A stretch of 20,975 nucleotides of DNA, taken from a virus. Taxonomy: Duplodnaviria > Heunggongvirae > Uroviricota > Caudoviricetes. The notes beneath the pieces were generated by a model, which was given only the letters and a program-made list of their open reading frames with translations, did not search any database and was not told the origin of the DNA. Location of the stretch: positions 1 to 20,975 of the IMG/VR virus record IMGVR_UViG_2728369187_000006. The stretch is one strand, 5' to 3'. A program made the position numbers and the translations under genes. Of the stretch, positions 2,681 through 17,518 are shown piece by piece; within the stretch, counting starts at the first letter, position 1; every line of letters starts with the position of its first letter.

Positions 2681-3180
2681 GACTCGATAATTTTCAGAAA
2701 CGGGTTAGTGGCTTTCTTCTTCCCCGCCAGGCCAATCAGACGCTGGCGGCTGCTGGGGTCGAGTCCGAGCATTGCCCCCGTACTGCTCATCTCGGACTCC
2801 TGTTCTTTTTTGGCGGTCAGCTCCGGATTTTTGACCATGCCGCCCATTGCACCGGTGATGGTGTTGCCCTGTCTGGCAATATTTTTCACGGCACGTCGCC
2901 AGAACTCATAGGCCACGCACCACCGCTCAAGCACTGCGAGGTCAGTCACGCACAGCAGGCCCTGACCGCAGAGTTCTTTGGTTGTCAGTTGCCACATGAT
3001 CGTGGCGAGAGGAAGCTCTTCTTCAGCGAACCACTCCGGTGGCTCAACACCTTTGATGGGCGTAAAAACAGGTTCATCTTTGTTCAGGGCTCGCTTGCCG
3101 GGGTTTCCGGCCAGCGCCTTGCGCGCCGTTGGCTTAGGGCGACGCCCGGAACGCCCCACCGTTCCAGCCATATGCGGCAC
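2677..3180 (-). CDS. Terminase small subunit (P27-like family)
   Basis: 167-aa ORF immediately upstream of the large terminase. Basic N-terminus ([22 protein letters not shown]) resembles P27-family small terminases from memory. Confidence 0.8.
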
Positions 3181-3897: not shown

Positions 3898-4182
3898 ATG
3901 CCAGAAGTTACAGGTTCTCTCGAAAAAGGATTCGAGATCAAAGAAACTATCTCTGAATTGGTATTTAACCAAGAGGGTTTGGTTATTGACCATTCAGTAC
4001 AGGTTGATGGTGTTACGCATCGTATCGTCAAATATGACAATAATGGTAGCGTCGCCATCCGCTATGATACTGATACAGGTAGCAATTTTTCGCTATCACT
4101 GAACAATGTAAAACTCAAAATGACTGACAACAATGATCCTAAGAATACAGTAACTGCTACGTTCTCAAGGAACGATGGCTAA
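3898..4182 (+). CDS. Hypothetical small protein (moron candidate), opposite strand to the surrounding late genes
   Basis: 94-aa ORF in a visibly AT-rich island, with AGGTGA 3 nt before the ATG and an intrinsic terminator just downstream. No family recognised. Confidence 0.5.
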   Translation: MPEVTGSLEKGFEIKETISELVFNQEGLVIDHSVQVDGVTHRIVKYDNNGSVAIRYDTDTGSNFSLSLNNVKLKMTDNNDPKNTVTATFSRNDG

Positions 4183-4215: not shown

Positions 4216-4297
4216 TTCAAACCTCAACATAAATTACAATAAATAAGATGCATAGGTTATTATCAAGCGACTTAACCATTCTGGACTTAATTGTTTC

Positions 4298-4558
4298 TCA
4301 TCTTAATTCCATAGAGTGATTTTCTATTTTACGTATATCAGCCTTATCTCGATTGCATTGTCCAAGGGCTGATAACAGACTCACATTTAAATTAAAACTG
4401 GCCCCATATGTCAGCGGTTCTGGAATAACTGGTTGTGGGGTTTCAGCGGTCAGACTCACCGGTAGTGGTATCGCCGGAACTTGTACGTAAACTGTCCGCG
4501 AACTTCCGCAACCGGTCAGCAGCGGCAGCAGGCACAGGACGTGAAGCACAATCATCAT
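4298..4558 (-). CDS. Rz1: Rz1-like o-spanin lipoprotein, overlapping the 3' part of Rz in another frame
   Basis: Internal start (MMIVLHVLCLLPLLTGCGSS...) gives a signal peptide with lipobox LTGC and a proline-rich mature part, in the +1 frame relative to Rz. Start codon choice is uncertain. Confidence 0.55.
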   Translation of the reverse strand: MMIVLHVLCLLPLLTGCGSSRTVYVQVPAIPLPVSLTAETPQPVIPEPLTYGASFNLNVSLLSALGQCNRDKADIRKIENHSMELR

Positions 4559-4835
4559 CCGCAACAGCCACTTTGATATCTTCCTGGGTTCTCTGTGACT
4601 CCAGTGCGATCTGCTGTTTTGCATGCTGGTTAGCCTCCAGAACTGTATTGATGATTTGCATTGATTGCAGGCCGTTATTAGTAATGGCAGTTGCTGATTC
4701 AGCATTTCGTACAGCCTCATCAGCGCGTTTCTTTTCGTGCTGATATTTGCTGTAGTAGTGGTTGGCAGACCAGATAAAAGAACCAATGACAGTAACGAAG
4801 AATGCAGCGATAACCAGCTTATAGCTCAACTTCAT
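4443..4835 (-). CDS. Rz: Rz-like i-spanin
   Basis: 130 aa with an N-terminal TM segment (LVIAAFFVTVIGSFIW) and a charged, coiled-coil-like periplasmic part, immediately downstream of the endolysin. Confidence 0.75.
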   Translation of the reverse strand: MKLSYKLVIAAFFVTVIGSFIWSANHYYSKYQHEKKRADEAVRNAESATAITNNGLQSMQIINTVLEANQHAKQQIALESQRTQEDIKVAVADDDCASRPVPAAAADRLRKFADSLRTSSGDTTTGESDR

Positions 4836-5904: not shown

Positions 5905-7695
5905 ATGAGCACAGAATTAAAACTAAAGAAAATTATGGCATCGTCTAAAATTGAGCCATTTATTAGACATATTCGTTTTCCTTTTTTTAAAAACCTTGCA
6001 GAGGGTAGCAAGATTGATTTTGAGTATCCAATTACAGCATTAGTTGGTCAAAACGGAACCAATAAAAGTTCTGTTTTAAGAGCCCTATTCGGTTCTCCAA
6101 ACAACTATTCTCTGGGTAGCTTATGGTTTTCTACAGATGTAGATGAGATTAAAGATGGTGGTCGTTCTAGATTTATTTATGGATATTATGACAAAGCTAC
6201 TGATTCAATTGTTGAAGTAATTAAAACTCGAATCTCTAAAGAAAATGATCCTGATTACTGGGAACCATCCAGACCATTAAAATCCGACAACATGGCTCCA
6301 ATGCCTAGTACAAAAATCTCAACCAATCAACTAAGGACTAGGTGGAAAGCTATTGACAAAAATGTAATATATTTAGATTTCAGAGCAACTATCAGTGCAT
6401 TTGATAAGTTCTTTTATCACTCTGATTTTCATACATACCCTAAGAAAGATTATCTTAGAAAACGCAGTCAGATGCTAAAAGACATTATAGATAACGATCT
6501 TAAAAAATATCAACCTCATAAAGGAAAAAAAGACAAGCTATTTGTTAACACTTTATTAGAAAAAAGTAAGGTAGAGGCAATCAGCAAGATTTTAGGTCGC
6601 AAATACACAAGCATCCGCCTTATTGAACATAGCTTATTCACTAATGACAAAGCTCCCACAATTATTCTTCAATCAGAAAACTTAAAATATTCTGAAGCTT
6701 TCGCAGGCAGTGGGGAATTTGCTGTATCTATATTAGTGCATAAACTAATGGATAGCCCTGATGCATCTTTAATTCTGCTAGATGAACCTGAAGTATCACT
6801 TCACCCTTCTGCTCAATGTCAATTGATGGAATTTTTATCAGAACAAGCACTTAAAAAGAAACATCAAATTGTCATATCCACACATTCATCAACAATAGTA
6901 AAAGACTTGCCTAAAAATGCCATAAAATTATTCTGTCTGAATGATAAAATAGGAAAGGTTGATGTTCTTCAAAATGTCAGCCCAGAAGAATCTTTCTTTA
7001 TTCTTGGTGAACGCATTGATAAAAGAACCGTTATTGTAGAAGATCGGTTAGCGAAGAGGTTTGTAGAAAAGGCGCTTAAAGCGGGTGGTGAAGCATTATT
7101 AAACTCCTTCGAAGTAAAACATGTTCCTGGAGGAGCGGGAAGTATTCTTCAAACTTTGGCTGTGCCTTTATGTGTTGCCAATGTTAAAAACGTTATTTTC
7201 TTATTAGATGGTGACCAATCGAGAACTGATGATTATCCAACTTCTGATTCCATACCAGAAAATCAAAACACAAACCTTCAAAACATCATAAAAGAAATAA
7301 CCAATCAAGATATAAAATTTAGTTGTGATGGTTCTAATGGCTCATCAAATAACAATCAAAAATACAAAATGCAAAGAAATTTTATCGATTTCATCCACGA
7401 TAAAATTGCTTTTCTTCCTGTTTATACTCCTGAAGCATTTCTTATTGAGAATGTTCATGGTGATTATAAAGAATATAAAGATCAAATCCCCAAAAACATT
7501 CAAGATGCTAAAGAAATCACCAAAGAACTTTGTAAGTTAGACACAGGGTTGGAAAACGTTACCAGTGACGATATCTTTGAAACACAAATCAGAATTCTTA
7601 ATAAAATACCAAATAATCATGAAGTGTTAACAAAAACTCGAGAGTTGCTGCAAATCTTTTTAGATAATGATACTATCAGACCAAGAGTGAGGTAG
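5905..7695 (+). CDS. OLD-family-like ABC ATPase with putative C-terminal TOPRIM nuclease domain (cargo gene 1)
   Basis: 596 aa. Variant Walker A (ALVGQNGTNKSSVLRAL), Walker B with LHP (SLILLDEPEVSLHPSAQ) typical of AAA_21/OLD ATPases, then TOPRIM-like motifs (TVIVEDRLAKRFVE, glycine-rich PGGAGS, DxD-like FLLDGDQ). AT-rich. Family assignment is by eye, not by HMM. Start may instead be ATG 5935. Confidence 0.7.
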   Translation: MSTELKLKKIMASSKIEPFIRHIRFPFFKNLAEGSKIDFEYPITALVGQNGTNKSSVLRALFGSPNNYSLGSLWFSTDVDEIKDGGRSRFIYGYYDKATDSIVEVIKTRISKENDPDYWEPSRPLKSDNMAPMPSTKISTNQLRTRWKAIDKNVIYLDFRATISAFDKFFYHSDFHTYPKKDYLRKRSQMLKDIIDNDLKKYQPHKGKKDKLFVNTLLEKSKVEAISKILGRKYTSIRLIEHSLFTNDKAPTIILQSENLKYSEAFAGSGEFAVSILVHKLMDSPDASLILLDEPEVSLHPSAQCQLMEFLSEQALKKKHQIVISTHSSTIVKDLPKNAIKLFCLNDKIGKVDVLQNVSPEESFFILGERIDKRTVIVEDRLAKRFVEKALKAGGEALLNSFEVKHVPGGAGSILQTLAVPLCVANVKNVIFLLDGDQSRTDDYPTSDSIPENQNTNLQNIIKEITNQDIKFSCDGSNGSSNNNQKYKMQRNFIDFIHDKIAFLPVYTPEAFLIENVHGDYKEYKDQIPKNIQDAKEITKELCKLDTGLENVTSDDIFETQIRILNKIPNNHEVLTKTRELLQIFLDNDTIRPRVR

Positions 7696-8749: not shown

Positions 8750-9106
8750 CTAGAGGGCTTCGCCTAACAATAATAGAATACCTGATATAAACCCTATAGC
8801 TCCCTGAAGCTCTTTTCTAATTGCTCCATCAGAGCATTTTCTTTTCTTAGCAATGGTGCGTAATGAGATACCAATCACAAAATGAGCAATGATCAGCTCA
8901 TATTCTTCTGGTTTATACTTCCGCAGGCGGGCGACACAGCCATCAATCATGATGCCTTCATCATCATCGCACTGAATCCGGGACTTTCTGCCATGAGGTA
9001 AAAGCCCCTTGAAGCCAGCGGCTACCGGTTGCCAATCCACACCACTGTTCTCTGCCGCAGCCCACGCTCCCCAACGGTCTAATACTTCATACATATCACA
9101 CATCAA
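8750..9106 (-). CDS. Late-gene antiterminator Q-like protein
   Basis: 118 aa with the VLDRWGAWAA...WQPVAAGFKGLL...RIQCDDDEG motif recalled from the prophage antiterminator-Q family. Sits at the expected position after the nin-like region. Confidence 0.7.
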   Translation of the reverse strand: MMCDMYEVLDRWGAWAAAENSGVDWQPVAAGFKGLLPHGRKSRIQCDDDEGIMIDGCVARLRKYKPEEYELIIAHFVIGISLRTIAKKRKCSDGAIRKELQGAIGFISGILLLLGEAL

Positions 9107-14089: not shown

Positions 14090-14649
14090 GCGTTAGTTTC
14101 TCCACAGTCACGACACGCCACGGCGCCCGGAGCTGCACACTCGCGGGCGTCATTACTTTCTGAAATGCAAAAGATTTTGTAGACCAGTGCTGCATGCTCC
14201 TGCAGCTTCGAAATTGAGAGATATAGCTCGTCGTTAATTGCTGTTTTCTCATGCGGTTCCACTACACCGTCTTCGATTGCTGAACGAATCTGTTTTGAAT
14301 AACTGCCGATCTGTTCAATGACTTCCAGCAGACGCTGGTTAATATCGGCGTTGTCCACATCCTCGACGTCAGGAAGAGACACAAATACGCCATTTGCAGA
14401 CTGCGCCACAGCATCAGCAATGAAGTGAGTGCCACCAGCACGCTGTAAAACCATTGCCCATCCCAGCGGAAAAATCTGATCGCCATCTGCACGAAGGCGG
14501 TTGAATAAAGCGTTCTCTGTTACATCCAGCCAGTCAGCCGCTTCAGCGTAACCACCCGGCAACGCCGCGATAGTTTTTCTGACAGCTTTCACGTACCACT
14601 CAGGCTGTTTTTCTATTTTCCAGTGATGCTTACCCACGATTAGCCTCAT
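14086..14649 (-). CDS. CII-like / YdaT-like phage regulatory protein
   Basis: 187-aa ORF directly downstream of the cro-like gene, as in cI-cro-cII and racR-ydaS-ydaT arrangements. Family assignment is from memory and position only. Confidence 0.6.
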
Positions 14650-14680
14650 CGTTCTGTGGTTAAAAATTGAAAGTGTTCTG

Positions 14681-14971: not shown

Positions 14972-15646
14972 ATGAAAACAATCCATGACATCCGGCGGTC
15001 TAACGCCAGAAAACTGAGAGATGGTGTTGGCGGGAATTCTTCCTTTGCCACTATGATTGATCGCGAGCCAACCCAGACCAGCAGGTTTATGGGAGATGGT
15101 GCTACTAAAAATATCGGTGACAGCATGGCACGACACATCGAAAAATGTTTCGACCTGCCTGTCGGATGGCTCGATCAAGAACACCAGACAACCAACATCA
15201 CAAAAAAACCTGATGTTTCAATCACTAATAAACAAATCACATTAGTCCCTGTCATATCATGGGTACAGGCCGGAGCATGGAAAGAAGTTGGATATTCTGA
15301 GGTTGATTTGAGCACAGCAGAAACGTATCCCTGCCCTGTACCCTGTGGGGAAATGACTTATATCTTGCGGGTGATAGGTGATTCAATGATTGATGAGTAC
15401 CGCCCGGGAGACATGATTTTTGTCGATCCTGAAGTACCTGCCTGCCACGGTGACGACGTTATTGCATTGATGCACGATACAGGTGAAACCACCTTCAAAA
15501 GGTTGATAGAAGATGGGACACAGCGTTATCTCAAAGCGTTAAACCCAAACTGGCCTGAGCCTTACATTAAGATCAACGGTAATTGCTCTATAATTGGAAC
15601 TGTGATTTTCTCAGGAAAACCAAGAAGATACAAAATCAAAGCCTAA
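14972..15646 (+). CDS. cI: cI-like repressor (N-terminal DNA-binding domain plus C-terminal S24 LexA-like autopeptidase)
   Basis: 224 aa. C-terminal S24 features: Ala-Gly cleavage-site candidate (WVQAGAWK), Ser nucleophile context (VIGDSM), downstream Lys. Divergent from the cro-like gene across the operator region. Confidence 0.85.
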   Translation: MKTIHDIRRSNARKLRDGVGGNSSFATMIDREPTQTSRFMGDGATKNIGDSMARHIEKCFDLPVGWLDQEHQTTNITKKPDVSITNKQITLVPVISWVQAGAWKEVGYSEVDLSTAETYPCPVPCGEMTYILRVIGDSMIDEYRPGDMIFVDPEVPACHGDDVIALMHDTGETTFKRLIEDGTQRYLKALNPNWPEPYIKINGNCSIIGTVIFSGKPRRYKIKA

Positions 15647-15658
15647 TCAATGTTTATG

Positions 15659-15682
15659 AACCTGCTTCGGCAGGTTTTTTTA
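15659..15682 (+). terminator. Rho-independent terminator after cI
   Basis: ACCTGC-TTCG-GCAGGT stem followed by a run of 6-7 T. Confidence 0.75.
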
Positions 15683-15685
15683 TAC

Positions 15686-15720
15686 TTGACAATGTACCCT
15701 TGAGATACATAATGTACCTA
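15686..15720 (+). promoter_or_regulatory. pL-like early-left promoter with overlapping operator repeats (OL-like)
   Basis: TTGACA (15686..15691), 16-17 nt spacer, CATAAT/ATAATG (15708..15714). AATGTACC repeats at 15691..15698 and 15711..15718 share the TGTACC half-site seen in the OR region. Confidence 0.65.
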
Positions 15721-16029: not shown

Positions 16030-16305
16030 ATGAAAGTCCAGATTTTAAACAATAGTGGTGAAGTCGTTTGGTCATACGACATAGCCGCTCCTGTAGATCA
16101 GAGCGGCGATAGCTGGACCAATGGGAAACATCAGATTATGGCTGGAGTTGTGTTCTCTTTACGCCGTGCTTTAGAACAGGCTGAAGTCTTTCCATCAGAC
16201 CCTGAATGGAAATGGCCTTTTTCTATTTGTCCAAATTCGGAGAGTACATTTCAGAAAATTGGTCAGAAAGTCGCACTCGAAGAGCATCAGCCAACTGTTT
16301 CCTGA
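16030..16305 (+). CDS. Hypothetical protein (early-left operon)
   Basis: 91-aa ORF with a strong GGAGG RBS 8 nt before the ATG. Its 3' end overlaps a convergent minus-strand ORF, so the true C-terminus is uncertain. Confidence 0.55.
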   Translation: MKVQILNNSGEVVWSYDIAAPVDQSGDSWTNGKHQIMAGVVFSLRRALEQAEVFPSDPEWKWPFSICPNSESTFQKIGQKVALEEHQPTVS

Positions 16306-16468
16306 TTTTTTCAGGTAACTCGTCGGCATCGCAGAAACAACAACGCTCGATCATGTTGAAAGCCGATTCGTAGAACTGTTTTTGCTGAGTGTCGCTGAGA
16401 CAGGAAAAGAGCGACGTTACGATGATTTTATTAATTGCATTATCAAGTTCTTTTTCATCAAAAGTCAT
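16223..16468 (-). CDS. Hypothetical small protein, convergent and overlapping the previous gene
   Basis: 81-aa ORF with AAGGAAAA RBS upstream of its ATG and a protein-like sequence including a CCFC motif. Conflicts over 83 nt with 16030..16305; one of the two may be mis-called. Confidence 0.4.
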   Translation of the reverse strand: MTFDEKELDNAINKIIVTSLFSCLSDTQQKQFYESAFNMIERCCFCDADELPEKIRKQLADALRVRLSDQFSEMYSPNLDK

Positions 16469-16724
16469 TTGATTTTCCTTTTATGTATACGGGCTTAAAA
16501 GGATACCACCGAGCCTGAAGTGGTGAAAAGACAGGCACATAACAGCTAAGTATTTTCAACCAGAGAGAATCCTTAGCGTTGTGGTGAATGCGGCTCAGCG
16601 CACGCGGGTTAAGGTTGAGGCTGACAGTCGACCTTCTGTGGATACCCACCCGCCTGGTGTGCAACCTTCGCCAGGCACCGGGAGGCACCCGGCACCACAA
16701 CTTTATGCTGTGTGTAGTCTTGGC

Positions 16725-16770
16725 GGTACCAGCTTGTACCCTTGCTTCCGGCTGGTACCGTCCTTTTTAC
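16725..16770 (+). terminator. Candidate intrinsic terminator / structured element in early-left non-coding region
   Basis: 9-bp stem GGTACCAGC / GCTGGTACC (16725..16733 and 16751..16759) with a 17-nt loop, followed by GTCCTTTTTAC. The loop and stem carry CTTGTACC and GGTACC, the same half-site as the operators. Confidence 0.4.
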
Positions 16771-16981
16771 AAAACAGAGAAGAGCATCACCGGACGACGG
16801 GCTCATAACCCAATCCATCCGGGCGGCTGCCACCGCAGGTGTTCTTCTCTGTTTTGTGGAGAAACTAACCGCCCCTACGGGGGCATTTATGGAAATGTAA
16901 TTGACTCAATAATCGCCGGACGGTGAGGGCTTCCTTTTACCCGAATTCAACGCGGTGCAGTGCATATACGTGGAGAACAAA

Positions 16982-17518
16982 ATGTCATTTATTAAAACTT
17001 TTTCCGGGAAGCATTTTTATTATGACAAGATAAATAAAGACGACATCGATATTAACGATATCGCGGTTTCCCTTTCAAATATCTGTCGCTTTGCCGGTCA
17101 TCTTTCGCACTTCTACAGCGTCGCCCAACATGCGGTTCTTTGCAGCCAGCTGGTGCCGCAGGAATTTGCTTTTGAAGCGTTAATGCATGATGCAACAGAA
17201 GCGTATTGCCAGGACATTCCCGCACCACTGAAACGCCTTCTTCCTGACTATAAACGGATGGAAGAAAAAATAGACGCCGTAATCCGTGAGAAATACGAGT
17301 TACCCCCAGTTATGAGTACACCCGTGAAATATGCCGATCTCATCATGCTGGCAACCGAACGCCGCGATCTCGGGCTTGATGATGGCTCTTTCTGGCCTGT
17401 ACTGGAAGGCATCCCGGCAACAGAGATGTTCAACGTGATTCCACTGGCACCGGGTCATGCCTACGGGATGTTTATGGAACGTTTTAACGATTTATCGGAG
17501 TTACGCAAATGCGCATGA
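16982..17518 (+). CDS. HD-domain phosphohydrolase
   Basis: H...HD metal-binding pattern (SVAQHAVL ... ALMHDATEAY). Start at ATG 16982 is preferred (GGAGA RBS) over the ORF-track start at 16955. Confidence 0.75.
   Translation: MSFIKTFSGKHFYYDKINKDDIDINDIAVSLSNICRFAGHLSHFYSVAQHAVLCSQLVPQEFAFEALMHDATEAYCQDIPAPLKRLLPDYKRMEEKIDAVIREKYELPPVMSTPVKYADLIMLATERRDLGLDDGSFWPVLEGIPATEMFNVIPLAPGHAYGMFMERFNDLSELRKCA

Follow-up and report, generated by a model that had tools for sequence, protein, structure and literature searches.

A putative two-module non-coding RNA cassette with an initiator-tRNA-like arm in the early-left operon of an SfV/e14-type prophage

The stretch of DNA analyzed here (the window) comprises 20,975 nucleotides (nt) of IMG/VR virus record IMGVR_UViG_2728369187_000006 and is a lambdoid prophage of SfV/e14 type, its closest phages being SKA5, SfII and SfV (98-99% identity). 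Between the small early genes of this prophage and yfdR lies an interval (16469-16982) that a first-pass annotation had described as about 500 bp of structured, protein-free sequence, and that description is borne out for the + strand. Taken together, the data presented below make it fairly probable that the interval is a modular non-coding RNA cassette, read from the + strand, in which a small RNA (sRNA; module 1) is followed by a tRNA-like RNA (module 2). The interpretation put forward in the first-pass annotation holds in part; it had passed over a three-way junction with an initiator-tRNA-like arm, a DicF-like hairpin and the correspondence of the region to the dicF locus. The features of the cassette are as follows.

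16548-16771, + strand: STnc100-like sRNA module (Rfam RF02076 match), consisting of a 5' hairpin, a closed multi-hairpin domain, a linker and a terminator
16578-16701, + strand: structured domain, in which a 9-bp closing helix formed by GUUGUGGUG (16578-16586) and CACCACAAC (16693-16701) surrounds five hairpins
16702-16720, + strand: single-stranded linker UUUAUGCUGUGUGUAGUCU, a candidate seed, with a core, UGCUGUGUGUAGUCUUGG, that is kept across genera even where the upstream domain differs
16721-16768, + strand: intrinsic terminator with a 13-bp G+C-rich stem, a 17-nt loop and U5 (fold z = -3.4)
16769-16857, + strand: three-way-junction RNA of four helices, with covariation (fold z = -7.6; 64.6 bits with covariance model R1)
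16769-16788 / 16838-16857, + strand: P1, the closing helix of the junction, which holds the previously noted inverted repeat
16790-16796 / 16816-16822, + strand: P2, the 7-bp helix of arm 1
16799-16801 / 16809-16811, + strand: P3, GGG/CCC, closing the loop CUCAUAA (16802-16808)
16798-16811, + strand: CGGGCUCAUAACCC, identical to positions 28-41 (anticodon stem-loop) of E. coli initiator tRNA-fMet in the same register
16823-16826 / 16833-16836, + strand: P4 (arm 2), of which the pairs are kept and the sequence is not
16858-16884, + strand: conserved single-stranded tail GGAGAAACUAACC, then a small hairpin, GCCCC-UACG-GGGGC, of variable sequence and conserved pairing

A structured, non-coding region

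The region 16469-16982 is non-coding. Its largest open reading frame (ORF; 16588-16926, 112 aa) matches no Pfam or PHROG family, and the homologues of this ORF in e14, SfV, Salmonella phage 118970_sal3 and an O157 prophage carry indels (-1, +1, +20 and -8) and in-frame stops. Furthermore, substitutions in those homologues show no third-position bias, with counts at the three codon positions of 18/17/15, 9/11/11, 24/29/29 and 25/31/34. Indels, stops and codon-position counts together exclude the reading of the region as a decayed gene. In K-12, the ymfH coding sequence (CDS) of e14 (locus L001, 4079-4390) covers a decayed copy of the sRNA module and the junction; since the homologues conserve no reading frame, ymfH is probably not a real gene and its annotation probably spurious. 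As for the placement of the region between small early genes and the HD hydrolase gene, its non-coding status stands, and the correction concerns the immediate left neighbor (16223-16468), which is a real gene on the - strand.

The claim that the region is G/C-rich proved correct (G+C of 0.51-0.57 across 16450-16900, versus 0.41-0.47 in the flanks). Fold prediction on both strands, which had been proposed as a check, was run on 16500-16900 against shuffled sequence and yielded -174 kcal/mol (z = -6.6) for the + strand and -158 kcal/mol (z = -3.9) for the - strand. The perfect 15-bp inverted repeat is also real: ACAAAACAGAGAAGA (16769-16783) pairs fully with TCTTCTCTGTTTTGT (16843-16857) across a 59-nt loop, and lengthening the arms to 25 nt leaves them 84% complementary; we estimate that about 0.002 such repeats would be expected by chance in 21 kb. 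Likewise, the terminator-like hairpin is present as a perfect 10-bp stem (16724-16733 / 16751-16760), which the minimum-free-energy fold lengthens to 13 bp (16721-16763); T5 comes immediately after it, at 16764-16768.

The three-way junction and its initiator-tRNA-like arm

Within the junction closed by helix P1, the conserved part is arm 1, which is composed of P2, an internal loop (AC opposite AAUC), three G-C pairs and the loop CUCAUAA. Arm 2 (P4) ranges from 14 to ~45 nt, and only its base pairs are kept. To characterize the junction, homologues were first collected as exact matches to a core motif, among viral contigs and in a set of genomes in which each species was represented once. A second retrieval, made through the flanks of P1 alone and without selecting on the loop, avoids circularity with respect to the loop and provided 56 distinct sequences.

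An alignment of 24 sequences from species genomes and viral contigs (among them Escherichia, Citrobacter, Enterobacter, Kosakonia, Phytobacter, Pseudescherichia, Leclercia, Mixta, Buttiauxella, Pseudocitrobacter and Erwinia) has 94% of its helix cells paired, compared to at most 53% when the partner columns are slid, and contains 9 compensatory pairs. P3 is paired in 100% of the sequences, and five of the seven P2 pairs are compensatory in a set that extends to Klebsiella, Raoultella and Pantoea versions, whose flanks are unrelated. The junction is found across at least 12 enterobacterial genera. The suggested survey of conservation and covariation among related prophages therefore reveals a conserved structure with compensatory pairs; the perfect 15-bp repeat, present in the window, is particular to the E. 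coli type, and one position inside this helix is a mismatch in 19 of the 24 aligned homologues. Several of the pairs are G-U pairs, one of them a U-G in 23 of the 24 sequences, and these become mismatches on the - strand or in DNA. Since they are valid on the + strand only, the junction is a + strand RNA. A recombination site, as had been proposed for the repeat, is not supported, the repeat being an RNA helix with strand-specific G-U pairs and compensatory changes.

With R1, our covariance model of arm 1, for which E-values are rough, all versions of the arm score 48-66 bits, and no copies are detected in lambda, P22 or Qin. The 14 non-enterobacterial matches to an 18-nt motif lack the helices and are chance-like. 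Among complete E. coli genomes, 2488 of 5426 carry the junction, which is annotated as nothing or as a 'hypothetical protein'. The junction has no Rfam family, and a literature search by sequence string and by keyword on prophage tRNA-like anticodon-arm mimics found no published description of it, so that it is apparently undescribed. In nearly all loci it lies directly after an intrinsic terminator or a tRNA, which implies that it would be transcribed mainly on read-through, that is, during lytic development. In e14, which is defective, the CAU loop has become UUAAUAA and module 1 carries changes in its AGGCA hairpin, against ~92% identity over the remaining sequence; these mutations fit a function needed by an active phage.

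The identity of CGGGCUCAUAACCC to tRNA-fMet spans 14 nt and includes the three G-C pairs. The tRNA-fMet sequence used in this comparison is 100% identical to an annotated tRNA-Met gene present in ~4 copies per genome. CAU is kept in all but two of the 56 distinct flank-retrieved sequences; the loop variants are CUCAUUA, CCCAUCA, UUCAUAA and, in the two exceptions, CUCCUAA. In spite of this identity, the junction is not a tRNA, because the D arm and T-loop are absent and the tRNA searches are silent: ARAGORN reports no tRNA or transfer-messenger RNA (tmRNA) in the window and makes no tRNA call on the element in L006, and the Rfam tRNA model (RF00005) has no match at E<=10 in the window or at E<=0.05 in the loci. 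Of the features that define a tRNA, the window element has the 7-nt loop with U33 closed by a stem. In place of a 7-bp acceptor stem with a 3' NCCA, it has a 20-25-bp helix and no CCA.

The acceptor-like feature is found in the Klebsiella/Raoultella type only. In this phage form, arms 1 and 2 are closed by just 6-7 bp (UGGCCUG / CAGGCC), giving an element of ~72 nt. Fifteen of 16 sequences have a 3' (A/G)CCA, and the element is located in a tRNA array downstream of Q, where a 5-nt spacer separates it from the preceding tRNA. One Klebsiella phage contig (L107) carries both forms, the long-helix form in the early-left region and the short CCA-ended form in a late tRNA array (6066-6103 and 14620-14657).

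The hairpin that follows GGAGAAACUAACC has no U-run and is thus not a terminator. The tail itself (16858-16870) is similar to GGAGAGAAACUAUG, the ribosome-binding region of ftsZ, and shows partial complementarity to the linker of module 1 (UAGUCUU). Pairing of the linker seed with the tail was considered and rejected: there is some complementarity, there is no covariation, and a change in L136 breaks the pairing. Internal pairing of the CUCAUAA loop was also rejected, the sole complement in the window being the junction itself and the linker UUAUG not being conserved in homologues.

Elements reminiscent of the junction were also observed elsewhere. In phage P1 (L009, 1672-2128, from tRNA-Thr to tciA), two tandem units each consist of an arm-1-like hairpin (with a GUCAUAU or UUCAUAU loop and AAUC) and, just after it, an STnc100-like domain of the form GUGGUGAAU...CACC. 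Around the second hairpin lies a AAGAGCAUUCU/AGAAUGCUCUU helix that resembles the closing helix of the junction, and the arm-1 copies of this phage are weak. The same order of arm-1-like hairpin and domain is seen in Pantoea phage PA-1 (L007, 2500-2720). Additional tRNA-like pieces are present before the GUUGUGGUG domain in related prophages, whose pL leaders are long and non-coding: hairpins with the canonical T-loop sequences CUGGUUCAAUUCCAG and GUCCGUUCGAUUCGGAC, each with ACCGG after it, were observed in the leader of the O157 prophage (L003, 3760-3850) and in the 3070-3150 stretch of L011. Finally, a metagenome-assembled genome of the Gammaproteobacteria that matched the 18-nt motif (L162, 3660-3730) carries a tRNA-fMet-like gene that lacks the T arm, its anticodon arm leading straight into AAUCC and the 3' acceptor strand.

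The STnc100-like module and the dicF locus

The Rfam scan proposed in the first-pass annotation returned no family at its gathering score anywhere in the window, and at permissive thresholds it gave STnc100 and a weak DicF match. The STnc100 model (RF02076) aligns to 16548-16771 of the + strand over model positions 1-206 of 206, with 43.4 bits against a gathering score of 47 (E=5e-8), and the homologous positions in SfV, e14, sal3, phage P1 and Qin score 29-39 bits, likewise below threshold. Other matches at E<=10 (MIR1094, ar7, hairpin ribozyme and others) were dismissed as noise. The left half of the region is hence a full-length, sub-threshold STnc100 match that ends in the terminator-like hairpin, which supports the earlier suggestion that the region could encode a small RNA.

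The hairpins of the domain include UGCG-GCUCAG-CGCA and CCGGG-AGGCA-CCCGG. Phage P1, Qin, Klebsiella, Buttiauxella, Pseudocitrobacter and the STnc100 consensus all retain the closing helix, the first hairpin and the hairpin with the AGGCA loop, and the middle hairpins are freely replaced among homologues. Compensatory changes in the closing helix are seen in phage P1 (for instance, GUUGCGGUG / CACCGCAA), Qin and the canonical STnc100 consensus. By our reading, the stem of the AGGCA hairpin covaries as well (CCGGG/CCCGG, CCUGG/CCAGG, GGUGG/CCACC); the pairs counted by the alignment tool at this stem were just two, both of them invariant. The terminator stem covaries by eye (UACC/GGUA, CGUC/GACG, CAUC/GAUG, CGCC/GGCG) and is always followed by U5-7 in 21 homologues; a consensus terminator scanner passed over 16721-16768, where the 17-nt loop exceeds the scanner limit of 8. 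The conserved linker core UGCUGUGUGUAGUCUUGG is likely to be the seed of the sRNA. From its sequence and predicted fold, module 1 appears to be a divergent relative of the STnc100/PasD prophage sRNA family in a new operon position, and it is most likely an sRNA that would also attenuate the operon.

STnc100 is a multi-copy RNA, of which eleven copies are transcribed in the enterohemorrhagic E. coli strain EDL933 (one confirmed by Northern blot), and it accumulates as terminated species of ~200 nt (PMC5331693). A common origin has been proposed for STnc100 and PasD, an Hfq-dependent sRNA of enteropathogenic E. coli (PMC8550237; 2026 preprint bioRxiv 10.64898/2026.05.13.724894), and the family is found in the late region near the antiterminator Q and the lysis genes (bioRxiv 10.64898/2026.05.13.724894; PMC12370729). 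PasA, PasB and PasC were considered as possible equivalents and none equals the locus, PasB lying among structural genes and PasA and PasC near lysis genes. In e14, ymfH is listed in the 'YmfT iModulon' gene set with intE, xisE and other e14 ymf genes (PMC12132413), which suggests that the ymfH stretch is co-expressed with the rest of the prophage; the papers on ymfH contain operon-level data only.

The 5' half of the terminator, UUGGCGGUACCAG, resembles DicF, UUUGGCGGUAUCAG. The DicF model (RF00039) scores 19.4 bits at 16709-16763, against a gathering score of 48 and the 76.7 bits obtained by true DicF. We therefore compared the region with the ydfC-dicB gap of K-12 Qin (L173, 4043-4609), a 567-nt non-coding interval of the early-left operon downstream of the dicA repressor gene, in which three elements can be distinguished. 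The first is a GGUUGUGGCAA...GCUGCAAC domain (~4250-4365), directly before dicF and nearly identical to one of several domain variants found before the junction in E. coli prophages. The second is dicF, with its 76.7 bits. The third is another STnc100-like domain (4433-4642, 34 bits), which runs into the dicB start codon and thus constitutes the dicB 5' untranslated region (UTR). With two STnc100-type domains flanking dicF, the DicF precursor would be an STnc100-like RNA, and the order of the Qin elements makes module 1 of the window the positional and architectural counterpart of 'domain plus DicF'. Orthology to DicF was nevertheless rejected: the loop of DicF, AGUUUUACUCCG, pairs with the ftsZ ribosome-binding site CGGAGAGAAACU (a pairing that duplex prediction recovered for DicF), whereas the ftsZ-pairing loop is missing from module 1 and its pairing with ftsZ is no better than that of shuffles. 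These comparisons point to a cassette family that would be defined by a domain, a variable seed and a terminator starting with UUUGGCGG.

Operon setting, possible working and known relatives

The genes and other features around the cassette are as follows.

14972-15646, + strand: S24 (LexA/cI-type) repressor gene (Peptidase_S24 match)
15658-15677, + strand: repressor terminator, directly after the repressor gene
15686-15713, + strand: pL-like promoter, TTGACA-16-CATAAT, matching the sigma-70 consensus at 11/12 positions (outside the cassette and given as context only)
Between this promoter and the phrog_3195 gene, + strand: gene for a ClpX-zinc-finger-like small protein (placed by gene order)
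16030-16305, + strand: phrog_3195 gene (PHROG match), a real gene left of the region
16223-16468, - strand: phrog_3311 gene, 81 aa (PHROG E=3e-55 over 81/81 residues), with an AAGGA ribosome-binding site before its ATG
16505-16539, strand not set: shared 35-nt block, 94% identical to lambda 34394-34428 and found in P22, HK620 and others
16885-16982, + strand: yfdR leader, with GGAG at 16972-16975, a separate mosaic module also found before yfdR in CPS-53-type prophages
16983 (ATG), + strand: yfdR, encoding an HD-domain 5'-deoxynucleotidase, a real gene right of the region

Downstream of yfdR, the + strand continues with genes for a DUF551 protein, excisionase and integrase; the three-way junction lies 1.6 kb from int and is not at the prophage end. 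The opposite operon comprises cro-like, CII-like, replication, RusA and Q genes. The order of repressor, terminator, 11/12 promoter, small genes, yfdR, xis and int, together with this opposite operon, confirms that the region belongs to the early-left (pL) operon, as had been stated. The promoter at 15686-15713 would drive the operon that carries the cassette, which lies 860 nt downstream of pL. Annotations reveal a common arrangement of repressor, 0.4-1 kb of non-coding sequence, yfdP/yfdQ/yfdR, xis and int in SfV, e14, the O157 prophage, LLS, Citrobacter phage phiNP and Salmonella phage sal3. With the terminator, the promoter and the small genes included, the succession from repressor to int in these phages agrees with that of the window. 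The regulators recognized among the window proteins are a CII-like protein and, encoded at 8750-9106 on the - strand, a late antiterminator of the Q type; none was recognized as N-like.

The phrog_3311 gene occupies the slot held by sieB in lambda and P22. The 35-nt block next to it has no significant fold of its own (z = -0.65) and is kept in lambda (L004, 1395-1429), P22 (L005, 2501-2535), e14 (L001, ~4003-4037), HK620 and VT1-Sakai with unrelated flanks. It lies just upstream, on the anti-pL strand, of differing counter-oriented genes (sieB, ymfI or phrog_3311), and the P22 copy directly adjoins the annotated promoter of sieB. The - strand sequence of the block in the window is TTTTCA, 18 nt, TG-n-TATCCT, ~25 nt before the phrog_3311 start codon. 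The block may be part of the promoter of the counter-oriented gene; in phage LLS it is found ~20 nt after pL, with no such gene nearby. The yfdR leader is likewise without a significant fold (z = 0.06), and it matches relatives on its own (query positions 422-551).

Two arrangements in relatives bring the modules close to a promoter. Four viral contigs (L063, L079, L084 and L130) have a TTGACA-18-TACATT promoter with an operator-like palindrome ~10 nt before the GUUGUGGUG domain, and Mixta (L139, 1530-1600) has a TTGATT-18-TATAGT promoter, also with an operator-like palindrome, ~30 nt before the junction. Judging by these positions, the early-left transcript would in both cases have the RNA modules at its very 5' end. 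A C4 antisense RNA with isrK (a P1 immI-type immunity module) was observed on the early-right side of SfV (L002, 1282-1470) and sal3 (L011, 98-286); no C4/isrK-type match was obtained in the window at gathering thresholds.

Building on the non-coding status, strand, structures, conservation, modularity and context described above, we propose a mode of operation for the cassette in which transcription, termination efficiency, Hfq dependence, processing and functions in trans are predicted. Upon derepression, pL transcripts would reach the cassette, and a fraction of them would terminate at 16764-16768 to yield an STnc100/DicF-type sRNA of ~220 nt, possibly trimmed as DicF is. The same terminator would attenuate the genes from yfdR through xis and int. 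Only polymerases that read through would transcribe module 2 (16769-16857), which would then fold into the three-way junction. The long helix P1 is a plausible RNase III substrate and the tRNA-like geometry a plausible substrate for tRNA processing, and by either route the sRNA might be cut away from the mRNA. Cleavage could take place in the single-stranded GGAGAAACUAACC, and the covarying hairpin that follows it might provide 5' protection to the downstream mRNA.

RNase III processing sites, such as those of the lambda N leader and sib, are double-stranded helices of ~20 bp or more. Helix P1 has 20 pairs, or 25 with the U-tract extension; the Klebsiella type has only 6-7 bp, so that the function conserved among the versions cannot be RNase III processing. 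The most likely role of module 2 is that of a tRNA-like RNA, either trans-acting or concerned with processing, that would be made only on read-through. Between these, we favor a stable RNA recognized by something that reads the tRNA-fMet anticodon arm, because processing alone would leave the near-invariant anticodon-like arm unexplained.

Several observations weigh against the two-module reading. For module 1, these are the STnc100 score of 43.4, under the Rfam gathering threshold of 47; the location of canonical STnc100 and PasD in the late region near Q rather than in the early-left operon; the lack of a convincing promoter immediately upstream of the sRNA in the window, as a consequence of which it would be made only from pL or by read-through; the terminator U-tract, with only 5 U; and the fact that none of 150 novel EDL933 non-coding RNA sequences, from a study with uninduced cultures, matches the locus. 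Moreover, the window hairpin contains no equivalent of AGUUUUACUCCG, the ftsZ-pairing loop, and its whole-sequence duplex energy with ftsZ is no better than that of shuffled sequence. For module 2, homologues are narrow in distribution (Enterobacterales), and some covariation counts are inflated by shared ancestry.

A more specific version of the reading favored for module 2 is that the junction acts in trans in lytic growth as a phage-made mimic of the initiator-tRNA anticodon arm, either as a decoy for nucleases that attack this arm in tRNA-fMet, such as VapC-type toxins, or as a ligand of the 30S P site, IF3 or methionyl-tRNA synthetase (MetRS) that would reprogram translation initiation. 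VapC toxins of Shigella and Salmonella cleave the anticodon stem-loop of tRNA-fMet, according to Winther and Gerdes (2011) as cited in PMC7180214. These two genera are the hosts of SfV, SfII and ST64B, which would be in line, speculatively, with a decoy. We consider this version unlikely. Were it true, the linkage of junction and STnc100 domain in three arrangements (in the window, in phage P1 and Pantoea phage PA-1, and twice in the same phage) would amount to a two-part tRNA-like system.

An alternative to the two-module reading, for which we see similarly limited odds, is that the cassette or one of its modules is a processive cis-acting antitermination RNA, like HK022 put or the Bacillus EAR element, serving a phage devoid of N. 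The repertoire of regulators is compatible with this possibility, only Q-type and CII-like proteins having been found and none resembling N, and a strong intrinsic terminator must be passed for xis and int to be expressed. In addition, putL starts at the extreme 5' end of the pL transcript, put being a V of two stem-loops (73 nt; PMC9378689), and the promoter-proximal positions seen in relatives, with the GUUGUGGUG domain ~10 nt after a strong promoter in the L063 type and the Mixta junction starting ~30 nt after a promoter-like site, resemble that position. In contrast, neither a closed five-hairpin domain nor a three-way junction resembles a V-shaped pair of stem-loops; blastn with 11-nt words listed no similarity to HK022, put itself having been compared by its described architecture. 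The modules also occur independently, the domain being missing in L020, L094, L134 and L148, which keep the terminator and the junction. The junction, and the repeat with it, lies downstream of the terminator, and the Klebsiella junction belongs to a Q-controlled late operon that needs no further antiterminator. Furthermore, canonical STnc100 accumulates as a terminated ~200-nt species. The RNA-based antitermination element that had been put forward for this region hence found no support.

Even less probable is the proposal that the junction is a decayed tRNA gene or tRNA-derived recombination debris, either carried passively or serving, as DNA, for recombination or attachment. In its favor, the anticodon arm is identical to that of tRNA-fMet, tRNA genes are frequent targets of phage integrases, the CCA-ended Klebsiella form belongs to a tRNA array, and T-arm-like hairpins occur in related leaders. 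Debris, however, would not be expected to maintain four helices by compensatory changes across genera, nor G-U pairs, which the opposite strand or a DNA cruciform would turn into A-C mismatches. The arm sequences are kept in three unrelated genomic contexts, and twice within one phage; the junction is 1.6 kb away from int rather than at the prophage end; and neither ARAGORN nor the Rfam tRNA model recognizes it.

The least tenable reading, to which we assign next to no probability, is that of a decayed or unrecognized protein gene (ymfH of K-12 or the 112-aa ORF at 16588-16926): RefSeq places ymfH or a 'hypothetical protein' on the homologous stretch in many genomes, but frameshifting indels, in-frame stops, substitutions without third-codon-position bias, the lack of a Pfam or PHROG family and changes in arm 2 length by non-multiples of three all oppose it.

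The two-module cassette bears on the annotation of E. coli genomes, since nearly half of the complete ones carry the three-way junction, in no case annotated as RNA and frequently overlaid by a spurious CDS, labeled 'hypothetical protein' or ymfH. If functional, the junction would represent a new class of tRNA-like RNA in temperate-phage biology, and the cassette would offer a handle on the organization of the early-left transcript in lambdoid phages without N (SfV, ST64B, e14 and Stx2c types). DicF, among the oldest known sRNAs, would then join a wider family of 'domain, seed, UUUGGCGG terminator' RNAs with interchangeable seeds. The comparisons also suggest that STnc100/PasD-type domains are mobile RNA modules used in sRNAs and 5' UTRs. 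On its own, the sRNA half would be an ordinary new member of a known family.

Among known systems, the cassette can be compared with HK022 put. Both are structured RNAs in early operons of lambdoid phages lacking N-dependent antitermination. There is no likeness in sequence or architecture, the window element lies 860 nt after pL, and cis antitermination is known for put, whereas the window element is known from its sequence. Lambda 6S RNA (pR'-tR') and StxS of Stx phages are short terminated leader transcripts that act as sRNAs. As in those cases, a mid-operon or promoter-proximal terminator would serve as both attenuator and sRNA source unless read through; those RNAs, in contrast, come from the Q-dependent late promoter pR', whereas the window operon is early-left and has no known antiterminator.

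Examples of tRNA-like elements include the tRNA-like domain of tmRNA, the RNase P-processed C4 precursor of phages P1 and P7, and the thrS operator. Among anticodon-arm mimics, the literature offers pseudoknot I (PKI) of dicistrovirus internal ribosome entry sites as a comparator. Both kinds are already known; the junction itself has no Rfam family or annotation. As in these examples, a non-tRNA RNA displays a tRNA feature, here a 7-nt CUCAUAA loop closed by three G-C pairs, and the Klebsiella phage form adds tRNA size, an acceptor-like stem, a CCA end and a tRNA-array setting. The junction differs in having no D arm or T-loop and in the extension of its anticodon arm by a 7-bp helix and an AC/AAUC internal loop; the E. 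coli junction, moreover, has a 20-25-bp helix instead of an acceptor, no CCA and no known partner.

For module 1, the known relatives are STnc100/PasD and DicF. With STnc100/PasD it shares a closing helix with GGUGAAU, internal hairpins, the CCGGG-AGGCA-CCCGG hairpin, the CACC strand of the closing helix, a linker and a terminator, as well as a prophage-borne, multi-copy occurrence in E. coli. It differs in its sub-threshold score (43.4 vs 47), in its middle hairpins and in its early-left location, rather than one in the Q/lysis region. The family is known from its other copies as an expressed, Hfq-associated sRNA of ~160-240 nt, the window variant from sequence alone. DicF is reportedly released by termination and RNase III/E processing. 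Module 1 is separated from it by the model score of 19.4 bits and the absence of the AGUUUUACUCCG loop, and Qin has a second STnc100-like domain where the window phage has the three-way junction. In common with DicF, module 1 lies in the operon after the repressor and small genes, with further early-left genes following it, and ends in an intrinsic terminator; the terminator hairpin has the same UUUGGCGGUAYCAG start, and the domain that precedes it is of the kind found before DicF (GUUGUGG...CAAC).

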